64,000 nucleotides of DNA from Ostreococcus lucimarinus (GCA_000092065.1 CP000585.1); one strand, 5' to 3'; positions 3 to 32,997 are shown, counted from the first letter of the stretch. The notes: generated by a model from the letters alone, not told the origin. Numbers and translations: made by a program.

Positions 3-3000
3 AAGGGGTGCTTTTGCGACGGCGTGGCCACCGCGCTCGACGCCACGCAAAGCGCCGGGGCTGTTTCGTTCGCGAGCGCGTGTTCGGTGACAAGAACGAC
101 GGCGAGCGGTGACGCGATCTGCGTGGCGGCGCTGGCGAACCAGGGTGGTTCTTCTTCTTCGTCGTCGGGATCTCCGCCCGCGACGCCGGCGCCGCCGGCG
201 GGTCCCGCCGCGCCCACGGATGTGTACGCCCTTCGCACCGGTGCGAACGAGATCACGCTCGCGTGGTCCGCGAGCACGTCGAGCGATGTCGTGGCGTACG
301 CGATCGATGCGTGCGATTCGGCGAATCTCGCGACGTGCGCTACGCCGACGCGAACCACCGTCGCGGCGTCCGCCGGGACGAGCAAAGTCTTCTCAGGGGT
401 GTCCGCTCCGAACACCATGGTGTACCGCATCAAGTCTGCGACGCTGACGGAAGCGGGTGCGTCTTCGTCACCGACGGCGATTCCCGTGATCGACGCGCGC
501 GATTCGATCCTCGTCTCAAACGACGCGTCGACGAGTTCTTCGTCGTCGAGTTGCGGCTCCTTCGCGACGCCGTGCGATTCCGTTGGATCGGCGCTCGCCG
601 CGACGACATCCTCGCCGTCGACGCCGCGATCGATCTTGGTACTCCCTGGCACACACACATCTTCGTGCGGATCCACGCTCGGGTCTACGGGCGATGTCAC
701 GGTCACCTCAGCGCTCGGGGCGTCTCGCACCGTTTTGGATTGCGGCGAAAACTCTCGAGGTTTCGAAATCTCCGGGTCAGACGCCATCGAAATCTCTGGT
801 CTCACGGTAAAGAAAGGCCTCGCCACCACGGGTGGTGGATTTAAAATTACGAACGCCGATTCGGTGACGATTGACAGTGTCGACGTCGTCGAATGCAAAT
901 CGCAAACCATGGGCGGCGGCTTGCACGCGATCAACTCCACGCCGACGATTCGACATTCTCGATTCATCGGCAACATCGGTGGGAACGATCGAAGCGGCAA
1001 CAACGTCCGTGGAGCCGGCGCGTACTTTCAGACGTCTTCGCACGCTTCGTTGCAAAACGTGAGCTTCATCGGAAACGAACTGATGGATAGTGGCAAGGGC
1101 GCCGGATTGAACGTCGACGAGAACTCAAACGTCACCGCCGTTGGATTAACGCTCAAGGACAACAAGGCTTTCTTCGCCGCCGGCCTCTTTGTCGGTAGTG
1201 GCTGTCATGGTAACTTTTCAAATATTGTCGCCACGGGCAACGAAGCGTCGTACGGGGCTGCTATCGGTGTCTTTGCCGGTGGTAGACCAAAGTTCAACGG
1301 CGGCACCGTGTCAAAGAATACCGCCACTCTCTGGGGCGCGGGCGTCATCGTGTACACCACCGCGTCCGCCGAATTCAACGGATTCAATTTCACAGAAAAT
1401 GAAGCCGAAATCGGCGGTGGTGTCTTCATGTACTCCCAAAGCTCGGCCAAGATGTATAACTCGCGCGTGTCTTCGAACGTCGTTTCCAAGCACGGCGCCG
1501 GGATTCGCGTCGAGGACCGCGCCGACCTCGCGTTGGTGAGCACCGAAGTTTCGCACAACGTCGCGAATCTCGGCGGTGGTGGCGCACACGTCACTACCGG
1601 CTCGCTACTTTCCGTGAGGGGTGGTAAGTTCGAGAACAACACCGCTCCGAACGGTGCCGCATTCATGTGCGAAGGCGGCGCTCACGGCGGAGGCGAAATC
1701 GTCGGCTCTGGCGTCAGCGTCAAATCCAACGTCGCTTCTGGTCTCGGCGGCGCTATGTATCTCGCAGGTGCGTGCGATGTTCAAGTTAAAGACGCATCTG
1801 AGATTGAATCCAACTCCGCTGTGAGTGGCTCGAGCTGCCGTTCGTTGTACGCCGTCGGTGGAGGCGCTTTTGCGCTCGTACCAAACACCGAGAACGCGCC
1901 GACGAAGCTCGCAATCGAAGGTTCAACGATCGTTCGCAGAAACACTGCGCCAACTGGTGGAGCGATTTTCGTCATTCCTGCATCGACTTCTGCCGATGTG
2001 AACTCTCCGCGGGGAGCGCAAATCACCGTGACATCATCGACGTTGTCTAACAACGAAGCCAACGGCTGCGGTTCAACCGTACCCGGTCGCGGTGGGGCAA
2101 TGTTTGTGGCTGCGGGCAACCACACGCTACTGCAAGCCTCACTCAGTGAAAACACGGCGGACAAAGATGGTGGAGCGGTGTTCATCGCGAGCTTCGGCGC
2201 GCTGACGATGGATTCTTGCACCACGAGCGACAACACAGTGTCTCGGTTCGGCGGCGCCGTGGCGCACGCTGGCGCCAAACTCAAAGTCACTGCCGGTGTG
2301 ATCGAATCCAACAACGCGGGCAGCGGTGGTGGCGTGTACATCGGTGCTGATAATACCTTGCCTATGTTTGCTCTGATTGGCACGTCGTTAAAGACGAACT
2401 CGGCGACTCGCGGTGGGGCAATGTATTTCGCCGCAAATCTCGCGCTCGGAATGCTGAGTCAGCTCTCCCTCGATCGCAACGTCGCGACAGCTGGGGCTGA
2501 TTCGTACTGGCTTCGCTCGTCGAGTGCGAACGCGGAGTTTACGTGTACTGGATGCGCTTACGCTCACGCCAGTGGCTCGAGTACCGGTGTCATCGCGACC
2601 GAGGCTCTCGCGCTGACGACCGCCAGAGCGATCGCTTCGCGAATTCAATCTGGAAAAGTCACGGACGATTACTCCGTTCAGCTCGTGGACTTCTACTCGA
2701 ACCCCGTGACGAGTGAGATCGCGCCGACAGAGTGTACGATTGCGCCCGTGACGAGCTCTTCTACGCTCGCGCGGCATGAACTCGAAATCAGTGGCTCGAC
2801 GTCTGCTGCAACGAGCGCCGGCGTTGCGACATTCAGCGGATCCATCTTGCGCGGTGAGCTGAACGAGGAGTACACCGCCAAAGTTACGTGCACGCGTGAC
2901 ACCACTATGTCGCTCACGGACATCACTCCGCTCTCGCTACCTGTTCGTATCGGCCTCTGTTCCCCAGGCTCTGAACCGCTCTTCGTGCAGCACGCCGACG

Positions 3001-4496
3001 GAGTCTCCGTCGCTCGTGAATGCACGGTCTGCAAAGATCGGACGTTCAACTTCGACGGCATTGCGTGCCGCGCGTGTCCTGAAGGTGGCGACTGTCGAGG
3101 TGGCACTTCTCTCGATGCCCTGCCCGGTTGGTGGCGTTCTTCCGATTCCGCCGAAGTTCTATTCTCATGCCCGATTCGCGAATCGTGCGTCGCCGGCAAC
3201 GTCACCGGCGCGAACGCGTGTGACGAAGGATACGAAGGTCCAGTGTGTGCGCTCTGCGCCGAAGGTTACCGGCACTGGGGTGGAAAATGCTCAAAGTGCG
3301 GCTCCAACGCCTCGTTGGCGATGCCCACGCTCGGAATCATGGCGTTTATTGCGTTTTTGGTGTACATCTTCCGCAAGCCTCTCAAGCAAGCCGTCGGCAC
3401 GGTTATCTTCGCCGCTCTGCTCTTCGTCGCGCAAATTGTGGGCTTGCTCAAAGAGTACGACATCTCTTGGCCTAAATCTATCGGTCGATTGGTTGAAGTG
3501 TTGGATATCACGAACTTCAACATGGAGTCCCTCACGCCCGGGTGCTCATCGAGCAAATCCAACTACTACTCGACGTACATCACCGCAGTCGTCGTGCCGC
3601 CCGCCGTCACGTTATTCTGTGTACTCGTGTACGTCCTCATGGGCGTCATTGAACGTCGCGCGCCTTTCTATCGCTTACGCGAAATGGCGTGCGATGTGAG
3701 AACGAAGTGCCGTCGCAATGCCACTTGGCTCGTCGTGCTTTCGTACTCGGGCGTCGCGAAGACGGTGTTGCAACTCTACAATCAGCGCCATCTCGATGTG
3801 GGCACGTACTTGAGACGGGACTACTCCATCGACGCCTCCAACACGGAGCACATGGTTTATCGCATCACCGGCTACGTCGCGCTGATCGTGTATCCGATCG
3901 GTATTCCGCTCGTCATCACGTACATTCTCGTGCGCAATCGCAAACGACTCGACGATCCCTCGGTGCAGGCCAACTTCGGATTCCTCTACAACACCGTTCG
4001 CGAAGAAGTCCCTTTCTGGGAACTCACCGGGCTATTCTTGAAGTTTATGCTCGCCGCGATTCCAGTGTTTGCGAACGAACGCCTGCTGCGCATGAAGGCC
4101 AGTGCGTTCGACACAACGAGCGACTTCAACGGCGCGACGCAACTCTCGCTCGCCCAGCTCTTCATCGGCGTCGTGTTCATCGCCACGATCTGCGTGCGAC
4201 CGTACAGAAAGACACTGCACAACGTGCAATTTTCCCTCGCGATCGGGATCGTATTTGCGTTCGTCACCCTCAGTGCGAACGTTTTCAACGCCGTGAACAC
4301 GTACACGGAGCGTGAAAAAACCGGCGTCGCCGGCGTCGCCGTGGCGCTCGCCGCGGGTGCCCTGTTTGCCTCCGTCGTCAACTCGTTCCGCGCGGGCGAG
4401 TTCAAGCCCGCCTCCAAGGGCGACGCCGGCAACGACAGCGACGACAGCGCCATGAGCGCCGGCGTCGACGTCACCAAGCTCAAGTCAACCGTTTAA
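3..4496 (+). CDS. 5'-partial large receptor-like membrane protein: right-handed parallel beta-helix ectodomain (Pmp/PbH1-like repeats with GGA[MVI][YF] motifs), Cys-rich EGF/TNFR-like module, then 8-9 predicted TM helices
   Basis: The track ORF 24..4496 begins at a GTG, and the reading frame is open back to the window edge, so the gene is 5'-truncated. About 900 aa contain repeated G-x-N/T and GGAxY/F motifs typical of pectin-lyase-fold/polymorphic-membrane-protein repeats. A Cys cluster follows (CRACPEGGDCRGG...CDEGYEGPVCALCAEGY..CSKC). After it come multiple hydrophobic 20-23 aa segments (MPTLGIMAFIAFLVYIF, VIFAALLFVAQIVGLL, ITAVVVPPAVTLFCVLVYVLMGV and others). Confidence 0.7.
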   Translation, partial: KGCFCDGVATALDATQSAGAVSFASACSVTRTTASGDAICVAALANQGGSSSSSSGSPPATPAPPAGPAAPTDVYALRTGANEITLAWSASTSSDVVAYAIDACDSANLATCATPTRTTVAASAGTSKVFSGVSAPNTMVYRIKSATLTEAGASSSPTAIPVIDARDSILVSNDASTSSSSSSCGSFATPCDSVGSALAATTSSPSTPRSILVLPGTHTSSCGSTLGSTGDVTVTSALGASRTVLDCGENSRGFEISGSDAIEISGLTVKKGLATTGGGFKITNADSVTIDSVDVVECKSQTMGGGLHAINSTPTIRHSRFIGNIGGNDRSGNNVRGAGAYFQTSSHASLQNVSFIGNELMDSGKGAGLNVDENSNVTAVGLTLKDNKAFFAAGLFVGSGCHGNFSNIVATGNEASYGAAIGVFAGGRPKFNGGTVSKNTATLWGAGVIVYTTASAEFNGFNFTENEAEIGGGVFMYSQSSAKMYNSRVSSNVVSKHGAGIRVEDRADLALVSTEVSHNVANLGGGGAHVTTGSLLSVRGGKFENNTAPNGAAFMCEGGAHGGGEIVGSGVSVKSNVASGLGGAMYLAGACDVQVKDASEIESNSAVSGSSCRSLYAVGGGAFALVPNTENAPTKLAIEGSTIVRRNTAPTGGAIFVIPASTSADVNSPRGAQITVTSSTLSNNEANGCGSTVPGRGGAMFVAAGNHTLLQASLSENTADKDGGAVFIASFGALTMDSCTTSDNTVSRFGGAVAHAGAKLKVTAGVIESNNAGSGGGVYIGADNTLPMFALIGTSLKTNSATRGGAMYFAANLALGMLSQLSLDRNVATAGADSYWLRSSSANAEFTCTGCAYAHASGSSTGVIATEALALTTARAIASRIQSGKVTDDYSVQLVDFYSNPVTSEIAPTECTIAPVTSSSTLARHELEISGSTSAATSAGVATFSGSILRGELNEEYTAKVTCTRDTTMSLTDITPLSLPVRIGLCSPGSEPLFVQHADGVSVARECTVCKDRTFNFDGIACRACPEGGDCRGGTSLDALPGWWRSSDSAEVLFSCPIRESCVAGNVTGANACDEGYEGPVCALCAEGYRHWGGKCSKCGSNASLAMPTLGIMAFIAFLVYIFRKPLKQAVGTVIFAALLFVAQIVGLLKEYDISWPKSIGRLVEVLDITNFNMESLTPGCSSSKSNYYSTYITAVVVPPAVTLFCVLVYVLMGVIERRAPFYRLREMACDVRTKCRRNATWLVVLSYSGVAKTVLQLYNQRHLDVGTYLRRDYSIDASNTEHMVYRITGYVALIVYPIGIPLVITYILVRNRKRLDDPSVQANFGFLYNTVREEVPFWELTGLFLKFMLAAIPVFANERLLRMKASAFDTTSDFNGATQLSLAQLFIGVVFIATICVRPYRKTLHNVQFSLAIGIVFAFVTLSANVFNAVNTYTEREKTGVAGVAVALAAGALFASVVNSFRAGEFKPASKGDAGNDSDDSAMSAGVDVTKLKSTV

Positions 4497-4771
4497 TCGT
4501 CCGACGAAGCGCTCCTTTATCCTCGGAGCCGTCGTCGCGACGCCGCAGAGACGACGTCCCGCGTCGACGATCGTCGACGCCGCTCGCGCGACGCGCGCGC
4601 CGCGCCGCACCGCGCCCGCGATAAATTTACTTTCATCAATAAGCGCGCCCACGGCCGCATTTTACGCTGTAACACCGACGTCTCCGGTCACGTTTACGCC
4701 TCGCCGCGAAACCGCTCTGGAAAACGCTCCGCCGCGCGCCGGCGCCTCCGCAGATCCTCGCGCGCGCCGCC

Positions 4772-5194
4772 ATGGATCGCCTCATGCGCGACCTGCGCGA
4801 TCTAGACGACGACATACGGCAAAACGCGAGCGCGTCGGCGTCGCCGTCCTCGCCCGCGCGCGCGTCCGCGCGTCGTCGCGGCGCGTCGCCGTCGTCGTCG
4901 AGCGGGGTCAAGTCCAAGTCGGGGACGCCCGAGCCCACGAGCGCGCTCGCGCCGCGCACGCCCGCGCGCGACGCGACGTACGACGGACCGTGGTCGCCGG
5001 TCCCGTGCGCGACGCTGCGCGACGCGCGCTCGGCGCTGGAGACGGCGGCGCGGGAGCTGAGCGCGCTCGAGGCGACCGAGTTGGCGCGCGCGAACGCGAG
5101 CGGAGCGCTGCGAGCGCCGCGAGGGAAGAGCGTCGACGCGAGCGAGCGCGTCGCGGGGCGAACGGCGACGCGCGGCGCGGCGCTGGGACGGTAG
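4772..5194 (+). CDS. hypothetical small protein (weak)
   Basis: ATG-initiated 140-aa ORF in a GC-rich spacer with no recognisable domain. It may be a compositional artefact. Confidence 0.2.
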   Translation: MDRLMRDLRDLDDDIRQNASASASPSSPARASARRRGASPSSSSGVKSKSGTPEPTSALAPRTPARDATYDGPWSPVPCATLRDARSALETAARELSALEATELARANASGALRAPRGKSVDASERVAGRTATRGAALGR

Positions 5195-5329
5195 CGTCGC
5201 GCGCGCGCCATCATTTTTTGTCGCACCGACGACGGCTCGCCGCGGGGCTCGAGGCGTCGACGACTTGTAACGATACGATACCACACACACTCGCGCCTCG
5301 ACGCGCGCGGCTCGGCGGTCGACGTCGAC

Positions 5330-6118
5330 ATGGCGTCCGCGACGATGGCGTCGACCGCGTCGACGCGCGCGCGCGACGCGAGACCGCGGCGACGCGCGTC
5401 GGGACGGCGCGCGACGCGAGCTTCGGGACGCGAGCTGGCGCGAGCGTCCCGAGGCGAAAGCGACCCGGACGACGCGCGCGACGCGCCGGCGGTCGCGTCG
5501 ACGTCGCGTCGCGTCGCGTGCGCGGCGTTGCTGCTGGCGACGCGCGCCGGACGCGCGCGCGCGGCGACGGATGGATCTCGGGCGGCGCTGGAAGAGGTGC
5601 GCGCGGCGCGCGAGGACGTCGCGACGGCCAGAGCGGCGCTCGGCGACGTCGACGCGGACGCCGACGCGAGCGCGGACGCGCCGTCGGTGTCGAAGCCGTT
5701 GCCTTTGAAGGAAATCGCGGCCGCGCTGAACACGAGCGCGGTGAAGAATTTGGAGCGCAACGCCGTGGCGCTGGACGCCGTCGCGAAGGCGAGGCCGCTC
5801 GAGGACTGGGAACGCGAGGCGTGGCGAGGCGTGCGCGAGGATGAATGGTTGACGCAGAGTCAAACGACGACGCTTCCCATGGCAAAACGTCCGAATGACT
5901 TCTTGTGCTTCGTGTTCTCGTGCTACAACGATCCCAGGGCGCCGGCGAGCACGGAAGTTTTATTGACGATGCGCTTGGCCAAGGACGGCGTCGCGATGGG
6001 TCAACGGGGTGACAAGCGCATCACCGATCTCGGTCTCGCTGCGTCTCTGGATGACGTTTTAGAAAAATTAGACGCCTATTTGGCATTTGCGTCGAAATTC
6101 GTCGAAGCGGGCGAGTAG
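5330..6118 (+). CDS. hypothetical thylakoid-lumen protein (transit peptide plus twin-arginine signal)
   Basis: ATG at 5330. The N-terminus is Ala/Arg/Ser/Thr-rich. It is followed by a twin-Arg motif and hydrophobic stretch ending in AxA (TSRRVACAALLLATRAGRARA), as in Tat substrates. The C-terminal 80 aa are non-low-complexity (DFLCFVFSCYNDPRAPASTEVLLTMRLAKDG...). Confidence 0.55.
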   Translation: MASATMASTASTRARDARPRRRASGRRATRASGRELARASRGESDPDDARDAPAVASTSRRVACAALLLATRAGRARAATDGSRAALEEVRAAREDVATARAALGDVDADADASADAPSVSKPLPLKEIAAALNTSAVKNLERNAVALDAVAKARPLEDWEREAWRGVREDEWLTQSQTTTLPMAKRPNDFLCFVFSCYNDPRAPASTEVLLTMRLAKDGVAMGQRGDKRITDLGLAASLDDVLEKLDAYLAFASKFVEAGE

Positions 6119-28299: not shown

Positions 28300-31200
28300 C
28301 TACTTCTTGGCTTTGGCGAGCTGAACGCCTTCCATTTCGTCTTCGACGTCTGAAAAAAGCTCGCGTAAATTCTCGAGAGTCTCCTCGTCGGCGTCCCACA
28401 TTCCGCGACCGGCGGCTTCGAGCATGCGCTTGACGACGTTCCTGAACGCCTGCGGGTTCGATTTTCTCAGCTTGTCACGCATCTCTTCGTCTTCGACGTA
28501 GGTTTCGTGCGCGCCGTCGTACACCCAGTTCTCGGCGAACCCGCTCGTGGCGCCCCAGCCCACGAGCGCGGTCATGCGTTGGGAAATTTCGTACGCACCG
28601 CCCGATCCTTGGTCCGCCATCGCGGTCGCCCATCGCGGGTTGAGTAGTTTCGTGCGGTACTCCATGCGAAGCGTCTCGTCGAGATCTTTCGGGGTGACGT
28701 CTTTACCGAAAGTCTCGACGATGGAGCACGCGACGTCGGGATTTTTCACGCCCGCGTCTTCCTTCGCGGCCTTGGCTGCGGCGACGAGCGCGCCCGTGTT
28801 GGCGTAGTACTCTTGGATGTCGGTCAGACCGTACTCTACAGAATCGATTTCCTGAACCACGCGCTCGGTGGTGCGTAAGAGCGATTGTAAAACTTCTGGT
28901 CGCGCGGTGCCGCGTTCGTCGCCTTTGCCGTACGAGTACGCGTTTCTCGACGCCCACGTATCTCCAAGCTCGCGAGAGTCCTCCCATCCACTCGTTCCGA
29001 CGCGTTCGTTCACCATGGAACCGTAGTCTCCGGGAGGGTTGCTGAACAAGCGTGCGGTGGTGTTCTCGATCCCCTCGCTTTGCATCTCTCTCGAGTGTTT
29101 GCGAATGAAGTTCATCTCAATCGGCTCGTCCGCCTCAGCCGCTCGAACGAAGAGGTCATCCAACAAACCAACGACGCTTGCAAAGCTGTCCCGGAAAATG
29201 CCAGACATGTTACACAAAACATCGACGCGCGGACGCCCATTCATCTCGCTGAGAGGAATCAGTTCGTATCGCACGACGCGACCGGTGCCTTCTTTCACCG
29301 CTCGAGCGCCGACGAGTTGCAAAACTATGCCGACGCTCTCTCCTTTCGTTTTGATCGCGTCGAGTCCCCACAAATTTACGCTGACTGATTCTGGATACGC
29401 ACCGTCGTTTGCGTCTTGATGTTGTTTCAGAATGGCATCCGCCACTGCGGCGCCGCGCGTGGCGGCGGCGGCCGATGGCATGCGGTACGGATCGAGTGCG
29501 TGAATGTTCCTTCCGGTTGGAAGGACTCCTTTACCGTCGCGCAACAAATCACCACCCACTGCCGGAGGCACCCATTCGCCGTCCAGGGCTCGATGCATAC
29601 CCGTGATCTCTTCTGTGTTCATCGAGAGCAGATCACGAATCTCGATCGCTTCCGTGACCTTGTCGCTGACAGTCGCCGTAGCGCCTCCGCTTTGCAGCGC
29701 GTCTTGCGCGCTGACGGGCACGGATAGGTTGAACGTTTGCTCGAGCCTAGCTTTGACCGCGTCCAGTGATTCGTTTGGATCAGCCTTGACAATTTCATCG
29801 ATCAGGCCCGCTTCGATATCACCGTCAAAGTACGCGCTAAGATACTGTGTCATTGACTCGCGCGTCGGCGCGGTGCCGAGCGAATGCAAGCCTTCGCTGA
29901 AGAGTCGATTTTCCAGAACGCCAAGGTACGTGTAGAGCTCGCTGGCATACGCATCGAAGTCTTTCTGAGAGAGAGACTCCGCCATTTCCGGCGTCATGCG
30001 AACATGCTCGCTCGTTTGTGCGTCGACGTAAGGGCAGTCGCTGTCTAATCCAGCCGCAGTCACCATGTCAAAGATGGACGTGCGCAAAGCGCTGTTCTCG
30101 TCGGGATTTTCCCTATACTCGTTCAAAATTTCACGCAACTGCGCGGTTTGCTTGTACAAGCCGGCGCGTCCGTACGGTGGCACGTTGTGCGAAATGATGA
30201 CTCCGTATCCGCGTCGCTTCGCGATGATGCTTTCACTAGGATTGTTCGCGGCGTATACGTACACATTCGGCATCGCGCCCAACAACTGTTCGCTCCACGA
30301 CAAGCTCGTGTTCCCGAGCGGCGAACCCGGGAGCCACTCGACGGTACCATGCATGCCGAAGTGAACGATCGCGTTCGCCTTGAACTCGTTTTGAAGCCAT
30401 TTGTAATACGCGGCGTACTGCGGATGCGGCGTGAGATCGCGCTCAAACAACAATCGCATCGGATCGCCCTCCACGCCGAGCGCAGGTTGAATGCCGATGA
30501 AGACGTTACCAAGCTGGAGACCAGTGACGACGCTCCCTTTGCCTGGCGCAGTCGCAAGTCCGATGTAATTTTCGAGCGGTCCCCACGCCGCTTCCATCTT
30601 TTTTACGAGTACGTCGGGTTCTGGTAAGTATGGAATCGGTCCCCACTCCGTCGGTCCCCACTCCTTTGGAAACGCGAGCCACTTCTTCAGCTGCGCCGGC
30701 GTCACGTTCGCACCCGCAACCGTGACTCCAGGGAGCTCACCGCCTTTCGCCATGTCGCTCACCGCGTTCACCGCTCCATCGTAACCAGCCATGATTGTGG
30801 CGTTTTCTTCCAACGTACGCAAAGCTTTGACGATGGACTCGCCCGTGGGGAGCTCGTCGGCGTCGCCGAGGTAGTACCCTTCAGCTTTGAGCGACTGTAA
30901 CATGTTTTCTAAAGAATTCGGCACGTTTAGTAACGCCGCCGTACCCGTGGCACCGACGCCCGGGGGGAATCCGTACATCATCACTGCGATTTTGCGCTCA
31001 TCTCGCTTGGTTTTGCGTAAACTGTGCCATTGCTTCAGACGATTTGAAAGCGCAAAGACGCGCTCGCGAGTGAGGTAAATGTTGTCGCCGCACAACCCAC
31101 CGAGCGCGACCGTGTCGATCGCGCCGTCAAGTTCTGGCAACGCGTAGAGAATTGTACTTTGTAAACCACCAACGCCACTTCGAACCCAGGAAGCGATGTC

Positions 31201-32997
31201 TTGAATCAACAACGGCGCGGCGACGAAGTACGGAATGTTCTTCGCTCCCAAGATACCTTGCGCAACTTCAGCCTGCCGACCCGCCTCCATACTTCCCGCG
31301 GGGCCGCCGACGAGAGGAAATCCGACCGTGCTAACCACGGCGTCTACAACTGTGGCGTCTTGCTTCAAAGAATCGACCTCTACGACGCCTTCAGCGCGTC
31401 TTTGTTGTTCGTATTCAGACGTCAGCATGTCGCGCACAATGGTGTGCGCCTCGACGCCGTTGATGAAAATTGGAATCGGCAGAACGCCGGAGTCTTCGAA
31501 TGATTCGACTAAATCCGCAAGATATGGCTGCTTCGTGATGACGTGCTTACGGTAAAGAAGCATAGCCACGCGCGGGGCACCCGCTGGAACTTTGTGGGAA
31601 CGCGTCCGAGCGTGCCAATCAAGGTAGGACGCGATCGTCTCGAAGTACGGCATCTTTTCTCGCTCGCGTTGCGGATGATAGAGACCCAGCGCCGGAGTTT
31701 CCACGGGAGGTTTTGGCGCGCCAGAGACACCGAAGATCCGTTCTATGAACGATTTCGGCTTGTTCTCGTCACCGGGCGGGGCCAAGTACTCTGACGCAAG
31801 ATACGCGAACGCTTCTTCAACGTTTTCTTTGCCGCCTTGGTTCCAGTACGCGTACACCGTGAGCCAATTCTTCAGATCACGCGCCTTATCCCCGGGAACA
31901 AACTTCAAAAGTTGTGGGCCGATCTTCAAGAACGACAAGTAGCCGACGAGCTTGTCCTCCTCCTTGCCGCTTCCAAACTTGGCGAGCACGGCTTTCACTG
32001 CCGGCGGCGGTCCCGCCTTTTGCCCGCTCGGTGCCGCCATTTGGAAAGAACCGACGGATGTGCAGCTCATGAGCTCGAGGGCGGACTCGAACACAAATCG
32101 CAAGGGAATATCTGCGATGCGCGCGCGCAACCACTCGACTTGATCGTAATCGAACAACAACGACCCGAAGAAGACATCCGCGCCGTCGAGCGCGGCTTCC
32201 AACTCCTCTCGTCTTCCCTCGATATCGCGATCGCTAAACACTAACAAATCAACGTGAGGGTATCGTTTCTTCAAATCTCGCGCCGACGCCTTGTACAGCG
32301 CGACGTTAAAACTCTCGAATCCACTCAACAAAACAATCTTCCGCGCGCCCTCGCGCGTCTCGGGAACCGCGGACGCCTTCATCGGCGGCGCGCTCAAAAA
32401 CCCCACCCCACCGCGTTTCGCCACCGCCAGCGCGTTCTCCGCCTCCGCCAACGCATCTCGAGCTCGATCTCGCCGCGCTTTTATCGAGTGCACGCTCTTC
32501 TGAAACGTCAACCACTTCGCCCCGTCCTTCTCCGCCTCCCGCAGCAGCGCCGTCGCCGCCTTCGGTTCGCGCGCGTTCAGCTCTCGAAATCCAATCTCCG
32601 TGCCCGCCTCGTCCCCGAGCGCGCGCTCCTCGCCGTCCTCGCCGTCCACTCGCGGCTTCATCGTTCCGAACGCGTCGCGATACGCGCCATCGAGCGCGCT
32701 CGTGAGCGCGTCGACGTCGCGCGTCAGCGCCTCCACTCTGGCTCGGCGCTCGGCGACGTCATCGTCCTCTCGCCGCGCGCCCTCCGCCGCCGCCGTCGCG
32801 AGGACGTCGTCGGCGTAGCGCTCGGCGGCGCTCGACAGGGGCTTCGCGTCGACGCCCTCGCCGCGGGCGACGCGCGCGGCGGCCGTCGCGCGACGCGCGC
32901 GCGACGTCGACGACGCGCGGCGACCGAGTCGACCGCGCGACGCCGCGGACGCGCGCGGCGGCGCGGACGCGCGCGGCGCGAGGCGCGGACCGCGCAT
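28300..32997 (-). CDS. CHLH: magnesium chelatase subunit H (CHLH/GUN5; CobN/Mg-chelatase family) with unusually long N-terminal extension
   Basis: About 1330 aa align along the CobN/CHLH family. These include the N-terminal domain (KIVLLSGFESFNVALYK...VFFGSLLFDYDQVEWL), the central porphyrin-binding region and the conserved C-terminus (...NWVYDGAHETYVEDEEMRDKLRKSNPQAF). The ORF adds ~220 aa before the conserved start: an Arg/Ala/Ser-rich presequence and a predicted coiled-coil segment. Confidence 0.92.
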   Translation of the reverse strand: MRGPRLAPRASAPPRASAASRGRLGRRASSTSRARRATAAARVARGEGVDAKPLSSAAERYADDVLATAAAEGARREDDDVAERRARVEALTRDVDALTSALDGAYRDAFGTMKPRVDGEDGEERALGDEAGTEIGFRELNAREPKAATALLREAEKDGAKWLTFQKSVHSIKARRDRARDALAEAENALAVAKRGGVGFLSAPPMKASAVPETREGARKIVLLSGFESFNVALYKASARDLKKRYPHVDLLVFSDRDIEGRREELEAALDGADVFFGSLLFDYDQVEWLRARIADIPLRFVFESALELMSCTSVGSFQMAAPSGQKAGPPPAVKAVLAKFGSGKEEDKLVGYLSFLKIGPQLLKFVPGDKARDLKNWLTVYAYWNQGGKENVEEAFAYLASEYLAPPGDENKPKSFIERIFGVSGAPKPPVETPALGLYHPQREREKMPYFETIASYLDWHARTRSHKVPAGAPRVAMLLYRKHVITKQPYLADLVESFEDSGVLPIPIFINGVEAHTIVRDMLTSEYEQQRRAEGVVEVDSLKQDATVVDAVVSTVGFPLVGGPAGSMEAGRQAEVAQGILGAKNIPYFVAAPLLIQDIASWVRSGVGGLQSTILYALPELDGAIDTVALGGLCGDNIYLTRERVFALSNRLKQWHSLRKTKRDERKIAVMMYGFPPGVGATGTAALLNVPNSLENMLQSLKAEGYYLGDADELPTGESIVKALRTLEENATIMAGYDGAVNAVSDMAKGGELPGVTVAGANVTPAQLKKWLAFPKEWGPTEWGPIPYLPEPDVLVKKMEAAWGPLENYIGLATAPGKGSVVTGLQLGNVFIGIQPALGVEGDPMRLLFERDLTPHPQYAAYYKWLQNEFKANAIVHFGMHGTVEWLPGSPLGNTSLSWSEQLLGAMPNVYVYAANNPSESIIAKRRGYGVIISHNVPPYGRAGLYKQTAQLREILNEYRENPDENSALRTSIFDMVTAAGLDSDCPYVDAQTSEHVRMTPEMAESLSQKDFDAYASELYTYLGVLENRLFSEGLHSLGTAPTRESMTQYLSAYFDGDIEAGLIDEIVKADPNESLDAVKARLEQTFNLSVPVSAQDALQSGGATATVSDKVTEAIEIRDLLSMNTEEITGMHRALDGEWVPPAVGGDLLRDGKGVLPTGRNIHALDPYRMPSAAAATRGAAVADAILKQHQDANDGAYPESVSVNLWGLDAIKTKGESVGIVLQLVGARAVKEGTGRVVRYELIPLSEMNGRPRVDVLCNMSGIFRDSFASVVGLLDDLFVRAAEADEPIEMNFIRKHSREMQSEGIENTTARLFSNPPGDYGSMVNERVGTSGWEDSRELGDTWASRNAYSYGKGDERGTARPEVLQSLLRTTERVVQEIDSVEYGLTDIQEYYANTGALVAAAKAAKEDAGVKNPDVACSIVETFGKDVTPKDLDETLRMEYRTKLLNPRWATAMADQGSGGAYEISQRMTALVGWGATSGFAENWVYDGAHETYVEDEEMRDKLRKSNPQAFRNVVKRMLEAAGRGMWDADEETLENLRELFSDVEDEMEGVQLAKAKK

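Follow-up and report, generated by a model that had tools for sequence, protein, structure and literature searches.

What kind of protein is encoded by the long open reading frame at the start of the window, the whole 64,000-nucleotide stretch of Ostreococcus lucimarinus DNA analysed here (GCA_000092065.1 CP000585.1), and is it the product of one gene? The initial annotation described a beta-helix ectodomain, a Cys-rich module and eight to nine transmembrane helices, and suggested a lineage-specific surface receptor or adhesin outside any standard named receptor family.

A gene cut by the window edge

In frame +3, 1497 codons without a stop begin at nucleotide 3 and lead to a stop codon at 4494-4496; the chance expectation for such a frame, at the base composition of the window, is approximately 2e-19. 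A metagenome contig, L001, matches the gene with 99.87% DNA identity (six differences in 4496 nucleotides, and two amino acid differences), and its full-length gene call, P0001, is 1567 residues long and differs from the window frame at two residues. The open frame and the full-length P0001 together define a partial coding sequence on the + strand (3..4496; amino acids 1-1497 in window numbering), of which the 5' end is cut off by the window edge. The L001 gene call has 70 additional codons at its 5' end and starts with GTG, which cannot be right for a eukaryote, and the first ATG lies 33 nucleotides downstream of this GTG. The absent part thus comprises about 59 codons from the likely ATG, or 70 by the GTG call. 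The protein that starts at this ATG is likely to be 1556 residues long and to begin with MARARRRAIVAVLAWACANAIAARA followed by EDPG, a start that reads, by eye, as a putative signal peptide.

Eleven homologues with 66-72% identity are collinear across 80-100% of the query and lack internal stops. The O. tauri orthologue (XP_022838930.1 / CEF97860.1), one of these homologues, is a curated model of 1564 residues, collinear over its full length and 70% identical; it is from a different species, and its public name, 'Parallel beta-helix repeat', leaves out the membrane module. Another O. tauri record bears the name 'putative extracellular nuclease, partial', for which the Pfam and homologue searches gave no support. 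Among the Ostreococcus orthologues, identity is 72-76% in the C-terminal region and 62-71% in the ectodomain, and no part is better conserved than the membrane module. The region is therefore most of one real, intron-free nuclear Ostreococcus gene, with collinear homologues and no sign of an intron or a fusion, as expected for the single uninterrupted gene originally proposed. Restriction to Mamiellophyceae, which had also been raised, does not hold: Chloropicon primus, outside this group, has a close homologue with the full architecture and a Beta_helix match of 76 bits, and Chlorella sp. A99 has a homologue, probably of the same architecture.

The best explanation for the product is a predicted membrane glycoprotein of approximately 1556 residues that passes through the secretory pathway. 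From the N-terminus, its order is a putative signal peptide, a small Cys-containing head, a Ser/Pro linker, a tentative FN3-like domain, a beta-helix and an Ig-like domain, then a Cys-rich neck with DUF7630 at its end and the nine-helix domain.

The ectodomain and the cysteine-rich neck

Residues 1-66 (3..200, +) contain the end of the N-terminal Cys-containing region and a Ser/Pro/Ala-rich linker, recognised by composition (A 22%, S 20%, G 12%); the mean pLDDT of the AF2 model is below 50 across most of this part, and its Cys positions are kept in orthologues. We tentatively assign residues ~67-170 (201..512, +) to an FN3-like beta-sandwich from AF2 strands and Foldseek matches. The model places strands at residues 75-171 with a pLDDT of only 45-67, and Foldseek returns the FN3 domains 1x5z, 2edx, 1x5h and 2ee2 with probabilities of 0.97-1.00; a phmmer comparison with the FN3 domain of chitinase A1 gives an E value of 0.74, and no Pfam family matches this region.

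The main part of the ectodomain, residues ~205-838 (615..2516, +), is a right-handed parallel beta-helix of approximately 630 residues and roughly 20-plus stacked three-strand rungs, with a Pmp/autotransporter-like N-x-A...GGA repeat. In signature searches of the kind suggested in the initial annotation, Beta_helix PF13229, PbH1 and Chlam_PMP PF02415 (Pfam/SMART) do not match the window protein even at E≤1 and 7TM families do not match it either, although homologues do match Chlam_PMP (P0064, 61 bits; P0074, 36 bits) or Beta_helix (P0084, 76 bits) and DUF7630 comes near to threshold in the window protein. Among the nearest structural matches of the ectodomain are Vag8, pertactin, PfbA and Ag43, which are adhesins or passengers of autotransporters. 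However, chlamydial Pmp proteins and passengers such as Vag8, pertactin and Ag43 are bacterial and are anchored in the outer membrane by a C-terminal beta-barrel, whereas the window protein is eukaryotic, has an alpha-helical nine-TM anchor, and is only ~14% identical to them.

A low-confidence linker (residues 839-887; 2517..2663, +; pLDDT <50) with a C-x-x-C pair (C848, C851) is followed by an Ig-like beta-sandwich domain at residues ~888-985 (2664..2957, +), for which the AF2 model has strands at 890-982 with a pLDDT of 60-75. The Ig-like region is conserved in the Mamiellophyceae homologues and aligns to P0074, an environmental homologue, and to the distant family profile. Directly after it comes the juxtamembrane Cys-rich module, with 13 Cys in residues 986-1099 (2958..3299, +). 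Its last 46 residues (1054-1099; 3162-3299, +) correspond to DUF7630, which scores 23.5-25.5 bits on the window protein, just below the Pfam cut-off of 27, and is matched by 32 of 51 family members; apart from this sub-threshold match, no Pfam family matches the window protein at E≤1. Seven Cys (1056, 1062, 1073, 1082, 1085, 1096 and 1099) are at least 90% conserved family-wide, and all are present here, directly before TM1. The family profile also matches the Cys-rich domains of ELAPOR1 (E 3.6e-6), Mst1, mGluR7 and Eph receptors.

The membrane domain and its protist and fungal relatives

Hydropathy gives eight strong segments and a weaker one, for a total of nine TM helices in residues 1104-1460 (3312..4382, +), a domain further defined by loop charges and hhalign. 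The helices are TM1 (1104-1125), TM2 (1131-1150), TM3 (1194-1215), the weaker TM4 (1243-1262), TM5 (1291-1311), TM6 (1338-1357), TM7 (1379-1398), TM8 (1406-1428) and TM9 (1440-1460), and a low-confidence structure model of the C-terminal part, of insufficient quality to compare membrane-domain folds, has helices at the same places. Lys and Arg are enriched in the predicted cytoplasmic loops, and hydropathy and loop charges together predict a topology with the N-terminus outside and the C-terminus inside. Nine of the eleven N-x-S/T sequons are in the predicted outside part. The proposed order of beta-helix ectodomain, Cys-rich module and eight to nine helices is thus borne out, with 13 Cys and nine helices. 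Residues conserved family-wide are Q1144, W1156-P1157, C1181, P1199, P1302, E1340, Q1380 and P1400. The TM8-TM9 loop, with only ~11 residues, could not accommodate the pore helix and selectivity filter of a canonical TRP channel. The C-terminal tail (residues 1461-1497; 4383..4493, +), predicted from the topology count to be cytoplasmic, has an acidic Ser-rich stretch and is poorly conserved among homologues.

Searched exhaustively, the profile matches 10,933 cluster representatives at E≤1e-3, of which 2,848 remain at ≤1e-10; because this profile also spans the Ig-like and Cys-rich regions, some of the lowest-scoring matches may be to the Cys-rich region only. The Cys-rich and multi-TM module defines a pan-eukaryotic family of protist proteins, so the window protein is not lineage-specific. 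The earlier suggestion of a closer resemblance to protist surface or sensor proteins than to anything in land plants holds. The module sits C-terminally in proteins of up to 6,169 residues, from named sources that include Mantamonas, Filoreta, Clastostelium and Gefionella. A profile of 112 more distant members matches the window frame with an E value of 8.5e-128, and hhalign against these members gives a probability of 100% and an E value of 4.8e-87 over 505 columns, reaching TM9. The alignment takes in the whole membrane domain, in which the residues Q, WP, C, P, E, Q and P conserved in the family are present.

On this profile evidence, the window protein belongs, as one of its green-algal members, to a very large protist family that is uncharacterised. 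It shares the seven neck Cys, the helix order and the C-terminal placement with Mantamonas P0087, Filoreta P0121, Gefionella P0099 and Tetrahymena 7w5z_U2, and the motifs W-P, loop Cys, YP-G-P, GF-Y, WE, Q and P-Y...N with the family at large. Other protist members mostly have ectodomains with Ephrin_rec_like, TNFR-like or NCD3G Cys-rich repeats, FG-GAP or TIG, whereas the green-algal branch carries a Pmp-type beta-helix; from a comparison of these architectures, the giant ectodomains of the DUF7630 and multi-TM family are interchangeable. Two Cys that are common elsewhere in the family, one in the TM4-TM5 outer loop and one shortly ahead of this loop, have also been lost in the green-algal branch, together with the R-K that follows the W-E motif.

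The link to the Pfam family PF06011 ('TRP'), which contains fungal Pkd2 and Flc proteins, putative Ca2+ channels, is an indirect one. PF06011 (gathering cut-off 28.5 bits) does not match the window protein or the Mamiellophyceae orthologue consensus even at E≤1, but 22 of the 51 family members match it at E≤0.01, six of them above the cut-off (P0121, 41.2 bits; P0087, 38.8; P0074, 34.2; P0080, 33.6; P0134, 31.6; P0140, 30.8), and the family consensus matches it with 74 bits and an E value of 1.4e-20. All of these matches map collinearly onto window residues 1192-1461 (nucleotides 3576-4385) at Pfam positions ~150-423; the first ~150 profile positions, which contain the first helices, are unmatched in every protist member examined. 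The most direct bridge is P0074, which combines Chlam_PMP, DUF7630 and TRP in the architecture of the window protein and matches it by BLASTP with an E value of 5e-76 over 578 residues. By one-step and profile-level transitive homology through these intermediates, the membrane domain is homologous to PF06011. The initial view that this is no standard named receptor family thus stands in part: our literature search found no paper on an architecture of beta-helix, Cys-rich neck and multi-TM domain, but the TM domain itself is not an orphan.

The fungal PF06011 proteins include S. pombe Pkd2, Trp1322 and Trp663, S. cerevisiae Flc1-3 and Yor365c, A. nidulans TrpR and C. neoformans Flc1, and have roles in Ca2+ homeostasis and cell-wall integrity (PMC8618638). 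Like the window protein, they have the homologous multi-helix domain, a signal-peptide-led ectodomain outside and a C-terminal tail inside; in S. pombe Pkd2 the N-terminal domain is extracellular and the tail cytoplasmic, and the reconstituted protein passes Ca2+ upon membrane stretch (PMC9727806). Channel activity in PF06011 is established in just this one fungal member, by a flux assay and not by electrophysiology. In most fungal members the ectodomain consists of a small lipid-binding domain of ML-like type (TRP_N; PMC8618638), which has no Pfam match on the window protein; in its place are the FN3-like domain, the ~630-residue beta-helix, the Ig-like domain and the DUF7630 neck.

Proposed function and alternatives

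On balance, and with modest confidence, we favor a receptor for adhesion or force sensing that is fused to a cation channel of the Pkd2 type. The rigid beta-helix stalk would project from the wall-less cell and bind a ligand or surface outside it (most probably a glycan) or bear mechanical load, and the disulfide-rich neck would couple this input to the membrane module. The invariant C1181 in the TM2-TM3 outer loop, together with the seven neck Cys, would permit a neck-to-loop disulfide. The membrane module, like S. pombe Pkd2 under membrane stretch, would then admit cations, chiefly Ca2+, into the cytoplasm. Against the PDB, the family profile matches polycystin-2 (E 0.058-0.12), PKD2L1 (0.092) and CatSper2 (0.013) in the last TM helices, none of them significantly; the polycystin and CatSper matches are a weak but coherent fit to a channel, and could alternatively arise from hydrophobic composition. 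The protein would then do in a single chain what polycystin-1 and polycystin-2 do as a receptor-channel pair, which likewise combines a very large adhesive or mechanically loaded ectodomain with a TRP-type cation-permeable module. However, PKD, REJ, GPS, PLAT and PKD_channel domains are undetected by Pfam in the window protein, its helices number nine as against 11 or 6, and a pore loop cannot be recognised.

This absence of a recognisable pore loop would suit a surface coat protein or adhesin only, in which the beta-helix does the work, for instance in contacts between cells or of the cell with particles or viruses, and the nine-helix domain is an ungated anchor or a small-molecule carrier. 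The adhesins and passengers among the nearest structural matches and the adhesin-like freedom with which the family swaps ectodomains also point this way. Flc proteins were originally described and named as flavin carriers, and a flavin or haem carrier role was first proposed for the yeast and Candida proteins. Yet one helix is sufficient to anchor a protein, and here the membrane module is the best conserved part, with the intrahelical polar and proline residues Q1144, E1340, Q1380, P1199 and P1302 kept across eukaryotic supergroups; moreover, Pkd2, of the same Pfam family, is Ca2+-permeable (PMC9727806). We regard the adhesin-only alternative as a distinct but minority possibility. A membrane-tethered polysaccharide-active enzyme (a lyase, epimerase or glycosidase), with a catalytic beta-helix that remodels extracellular polysaccharide, seems unlikely: identity to such enzymes is only 9-17%, which points to no more than a common fold, the repeat resembles those of Pmp proteins and passengers, no Pfam enzyme family matches the window protein, and the invariant ectodomain columns are, in a shallow alignment, only the N, G and A of the repeat, with no conserved acidic or basic cluster.

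The NCD3G and Ephrin_rec_like repeats of relatives resemble the neck of class C GPCRs, and one member has a weak Frizzled match (16.7 bits, cut-off 22.3), features that would suit a GPCR-like receptor of the adhesion or class C type, with seven transmembrane helices below a large ectodomain. But there are nine helices and not seven, the NCD3G matches fall in extracellular repeats outside the membrane domain, and 7TM Pfam families exceed threshold in none of the 51 members that gave 22 matches to PF06011, making a GPCR very improbable. Least credible of all is an artefact, either a chance frame or at least two genes fused by read-through of an intron or gene boundary. The GTG start of the public call and the general caution that prokaryote-style ORF listing ignores introns are its only basis, and it is opposed by the minute chance expectation, by full-length collinear orthologues in several Ostreococcus lineages, including the O. 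tauri model, and by the recurrence of the architecture in Chloropicon and among environmental homologues, for example P0074.

The original proposal of a receptor or adhesin is probably half of the answer, the other half being a channel-like module. The kinship of the membrane module with PF06011 is the new point: the Cys-rich neck joins an adhesin-like beta-helix to a membrane domain with TRP-like relatives, and the window protein is one ectodomain variant within a modular, protist-wide family.

Gene structure and genomic surroundings

On the plus strand, frame +3 is free of stops for 1497 codons, from nucleotide 3 to the stop codon at 4494-4496, and at the base composition of the window (62% G+C) the chance of so long an open frame is ~2e-19. 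The 5' end of the window cuts the ORF, which continues upstream in L001, a marine-metagenome contig whose copy of the gene is 99.87% identical to the window, with six nucleotide and two amino acid differences. The full-length call on this contig (P0001, 1567 aa; prokaryote-style) begins at a GTG, in the stretch L001 2896-2931 upstream of the window, and the first ATG lies 33 nt further downstream, yielding MARARRRAIVAVLAWACANAIAARA followed by EDPG. Judged by eye, the former looks like a signal peptide, being basic and hydrophobic with an A-x-A pattern. Because this ATG directly precedes it, the full protein is likely to be about 1556 aa long, of which the window carries the last 1497, and P0001 is probably 11 residues too long.

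In 11 homologues, which share 66-72% identity with the window protein, the alignment spans 80-100% of the query without interruption; among them is an O. tauri protein annotated as 'Parallel beta-helix repeat' (XP_022838930.1 / CEF97860.1, 1564 aa). This is therefore one gene, without introns or fusion, of an Ostreococcus other than O. tauri. Signs that separate genes had been joined, a concern raised in the initial annotation, were looked for and none was found, there being no internal stop in the 1497 codons. Members of the wider family are also named in public records as 'predicted outer membrane repeat protein', 'hypothetical protein' and 'putative extracellular nuclease'; the last of these, on one O. 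tauri record, was set aside, as no domain in its support was found.

The neighbouring genes are ordinary green-algal nuclear genes, encoding Mg-chelatase H, an MDHAR-like reductase and a WD40 protein. One copy was seen per Ostreococcus lineage, and a six-frame HMM scan of the 64-kb window revealed no second copy of the membrane module. A candidate paralogue at 28300-32997 (-), 1565 aa, was rejected as Mg-chelatase subunit H (CobN-Mg_chel, 1006 bits, plus DUF3479; BLASTP E above 5). Outside the window, a divergent 811-aa gene at L001 303-2738 (-) adjoins the 5' end of the gene and has only a faint Gly_transf_sug (glycosyltransferase) match. Directly downstream, at about 4500-6000, G+C content rises to 69-76% compared with 56-61% over most of the gene, and long ORFs on both strands overlap; the called genes here at 4772-5194 (+) and 5330-6118 (+) have no Pfam match recorded or detected, and a 262-aa product of this stretch has an Arg/Ala/Ser-rich N-terminus resembling an organelle-targeting peptide in appearance. 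A 1218-aa ORF at 57054-60710 (-) likewise has no Pfam match at E<=1e-3.

Ectodomain, cysteine-rich neck and predicted topology

Pfam and NCBIfam searches with the whole protein returned no beta-helix, EGF/TNFR, 7TM or TRP match, the sole match being a sub-threshold one to DUF7630 at aa 1054-1099 (23.5 bits against a cut-off of 27). Structural matches to beta-helices include pertactin and the pneumococcal adhesin PfbA, together with many phage tailspikes, capsule depolymerases, alginate epimerases and PL6 lyases, and Foldseek results are consistent with these, with weak E-values. The ectodomain contains 12 occurrences of an N-x-A...G-G-A motif, spaced mostly 26-32 residues apart, a pattern that marks the repeats of chlamydial Pmp proteins and autotransporters. 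The corresponding families are matched directly by homologues, with Chlam_PMP at 61 bits in P0064 and 36 bits in P0074, and Beta_helix at 76 bits in P0084 of Chloropicon. Of the domain families anticipated in the initial annotation, Beta_helix and Chlam_PMP are thus recognized in these three homologues but not in the window protein, in which the EGF/TNFR and 7TM families gave no match either.

Upstream of the beta-helix is a tentative FN3-like sandwich (pLDDT 45-67; Foldseek FN3 probability 0.97-1.0), for which phmmer comparison with the FN3 domain of chitinase A1 gave E 0.74. A disordered linker separates the beta-helix from an Ig-like sandwich at aa ~888-985 (pLDDT 60-75), and this is followed by a Cys-rich neck at aa 986-1099 with 13 cysteines, the last 46 residues of which form the DUF7630 match. 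When the family profile was compared with the PDB, the neck resembled Cys-rich repeats of ELAPOR1 (E 3.6e-6), the Chlamydomonas mastigoneme protein Mst1, mGluR7 and Eph receptors.

Hydropathy identifies nine hydrophobic segments at aa 1104-1460, eight strong and one weaker (TM4), whose positions agree with the helices of a low-confidence structure model. Lysine and arginine are concentrated in the loops that would be cytoplasmic if the N-terminus is outside, namely the loop after TM1 (F-R-K-P-L-K), the TM3-TM4 loop (8 K+R per 27 residues), the TM5-TM6 loop (N-R-K-R) and the TM7-TM8 loop (R-P-Y-R-K); this topology places the C-terminal 37 residues in the cytoplasm. The order of beta-helix, Cys-rich module and multiple TM helices proposed from first inspection is therefore upheld by the structure matches, the neck cysteines and the nine hydropathy segments, with an N-out/C-in arrangement predicted from the loop charges.

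In a 51-member sample of the family, the positions kept in at least 90% of sequences are the seven DUF7630 cysteines (window 3168-3299), Q1144 in TM2, W1156-P1157 and an invariant C1181 (3543-3545) in the TM2-TM3 outer loop, and P1199, P1302, E1340, Q1380 and P1400. The seven neck cysteines and C1181 make an even number across the whole family, and this suggests that a disulfide may link the neck to the TM2-TM3 outer loop.

A widespread protist family related to PF06011

With the C-terminal 457 residues as query we recovered relatives at 40-45% identity, and a profile of these Mamiellophyceae-type sequences, searched against 1.84 billion cluster representatives, yielded 10,933 proteins at E<=1e-3, 2,848 at <=1e-10 and 63 at <=1e-30. 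Because the profile included Ig-like and Cys-rich positions, part of the weak tail may match no more than the Cys-rich region; in the 150 best matches, though, the alignment regularly extends from the neck deep into the helices. One metagenomic sequence (P0056, 448 aa) is a frameshifted call, partly out-of-frame and Arg-rich, and was omitted from the exhaustive-search profile and the structure-prediction alignments. Family members are typically large, the longest reaching 6,169 aa, and carry the module at their C-terminal end, and the ectodomains differ, containing Ephrin_rec_like, TNFR-like or NCD3G Cys-rich repeats, FG-GAP, TIG, Chlam_PMP or Beta_helix domains. Named sources include the green algae Chloropicon primus and Chlorella sp. 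A99, Mantamonas (CRuMs), Filoreta (Rhizaria), Clastostelium (Amoebozoa) and Gefionella (malawimonads). The protist flavour noted in the initial annotation is thus well founded, but its suggestion of a lineage-specific protein is not, as relatives occur both in other green algae and in non-green protists. Profile-profile comparison aligns the Mamiellophyceae group with 112 more distant members over 505 columns, up to TM9 (probability 100%, E 4.8e-87).

DUF7630 is matched in 32 of the 51 sampled members, and PF06011 ('TRP', the fungal Pkd2/Flc type) in 22 of them at E<=0.01. Six exceed the PF06011 cut-off of 28.5 bits (P0121, 41.2; P0087, 38.8; P0074, 34.2; P0080, 33.6; P0134, 31.6; P0140, 30.8), and the Chlorella protein P0083 scores 28.4 against the same cut-off. 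The consensus of the 112 distant members matches positions 150-414 of 426 with 74 bits (E 1.4e-20). Placed through the family alignment, all of the PF06011 matches are collinear and correspond to window aa 1192-1461, from TM3 to TM9. The closest bridge is P0074, in which Chlam_PMP repeats and DUF7631/DUF7630 are combined with a PF06011 match above the threshold; it shares the architecture of the window protein, to which it is 27% identical over 578 residues (pairwise E 5e-76). At E<=1, PF06011 is absent from both the window protein and the consensus of its Mamiellophyceae orthologues, and from the profile relationships the window protein is therefore a diverged homologue of the family, not a member by Pfam's criterion. 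That the membrane module belongs to a described superfamily was missed in the initial annotation.

A PDB sequence search with the Mamiellophyceae profile found nothing significant. The last helices of the family profile gave polycystin-2 (E 0.058-0.12), PKD2L1 (0.092) and CatSper2 (0.013), none of them significant, and the TM8-TM9 loop of the window protein is ~11 residues, which on the predicted topology leaves too little room for a canonical pore helix and filter. A single-sequence search matched chain U2 of 7w5z (E 0.004 with the whole protein, 0.21 with the C-terminal part); the match spans the Cys-rich neck and TM1 only, and the chain serves as a family relative but not as a structural template. 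It is a 3634-aa Tetrahymena 'Transmembrane protein, putative' in a mitochondrial complex IV entry, and its neck-then-TM1 arrangement, that of the surface-protein family, is unexpected for a mitochondrial subunit; its presence there may reflect the assignment of unidentified density.

Candidate functions and implications

The analyses show an N-out/C-in polytopic protein of the secretory pathway, in which a rigid beta-helix stalk of adhesin type and a neck rich in disulfides precede a conserved nine-helix module that, as judged from profile matches, is homologous to that of Pkd2/Flc; taken together, we regard these statements on architecture and homology as very likely to be correct. PF06011 was built on S. 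pombe Pkd2, Trp1322 and Trp663, S. cerevisiae Flc1-3, A. nidulans TrpR and C. neoformans Flc1, fungal proteins that contribute to cell-wall integrity and to Ca2+ homeostasis (PMC8618638). In S. pombe Pkd2 the N-terminal domain is extracellular and the tail cytoplasmic; after reconstitution in giant vesicles the protein passes Ca2+ when hypo-osmotic shock stretches the membrane, with single-channel recordings, as that study points out, still lacking (PMC9727806). The window protein has the homologous module but a swapped and much larger ectodomain.

By analogy we somewhat favour a receptor-channel, in which ectodomain input would gate cation entry. The beta-helix stalk on the naked cell surface would bind an external partner or bear load, the neck, perhaps stapled to the outer loop, would pass this input on, and the membrane module would let in Ca2+ or other cations, a working logic like that of the animal polycystin-1/polycystin-2 pair but here in one chain. 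An adhesin whose membrane domain is a mere anchor or a small-molecule carrier is a less probable but appreciable alternative. The fold matches would also accommodate a tethered polysaccharide-active enzyme, but with identities of just 9-17% and no enzyme family matched we consider this improbable. It is very unlikely that this is a 7TM receptor, since the helices number nine, no 7TM family is matched and the NCD3G matches fall in extracellular repeats, and that the protein is an artefact is scarcely credible.

Rather speculatively, DUF7630 and the nine-helix module could be an ancient pan-eukaryotic 'plug-in' making any large binding ectodomain Ca2+-gating, with fungal Pkd2/Flc a reduced offshoot. 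On this view the Ostreococcus cell might have in the beta-helix version its main sensor of contact, osmotic or mechanical stimuli, or a surface molecule used by prasinoviruses for attachment. In the literature searched no paper was found on DUF7630, the O. tauri orthologue accessions or the beta-helix/neck/nine-helix architecture, and our data suggest a widespread receptor-channel architecture whose description was not found there. The analysis ties DUF7630, together with thousands of giant protist proteins that lack annotation, to the PF06011 family, and the membrane module to which the adhesin-type stalk is joined in this gene is related to the sole fungal 'polycystin-like' protein for which stretch-dependent Ca2+ passage has been shown. 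If the membrane domain is non-conducting, the gene would encode a conserved adhesin of the cell surface whose anchor is unusually elaborate. Ostreococcus, which is wall-less and scale-less, belongs to the picoplanktonic green algae, in which genomes are tiny, cells have no wall and few surface receptors can be recognised; O. tauri permits gene targeting by homologous recombination, and the candidate is therefore genetically testable. The gene thus provides a concrete candidate surface sensor, whether of contact, osmotic change or viruses, in a minimal alga.
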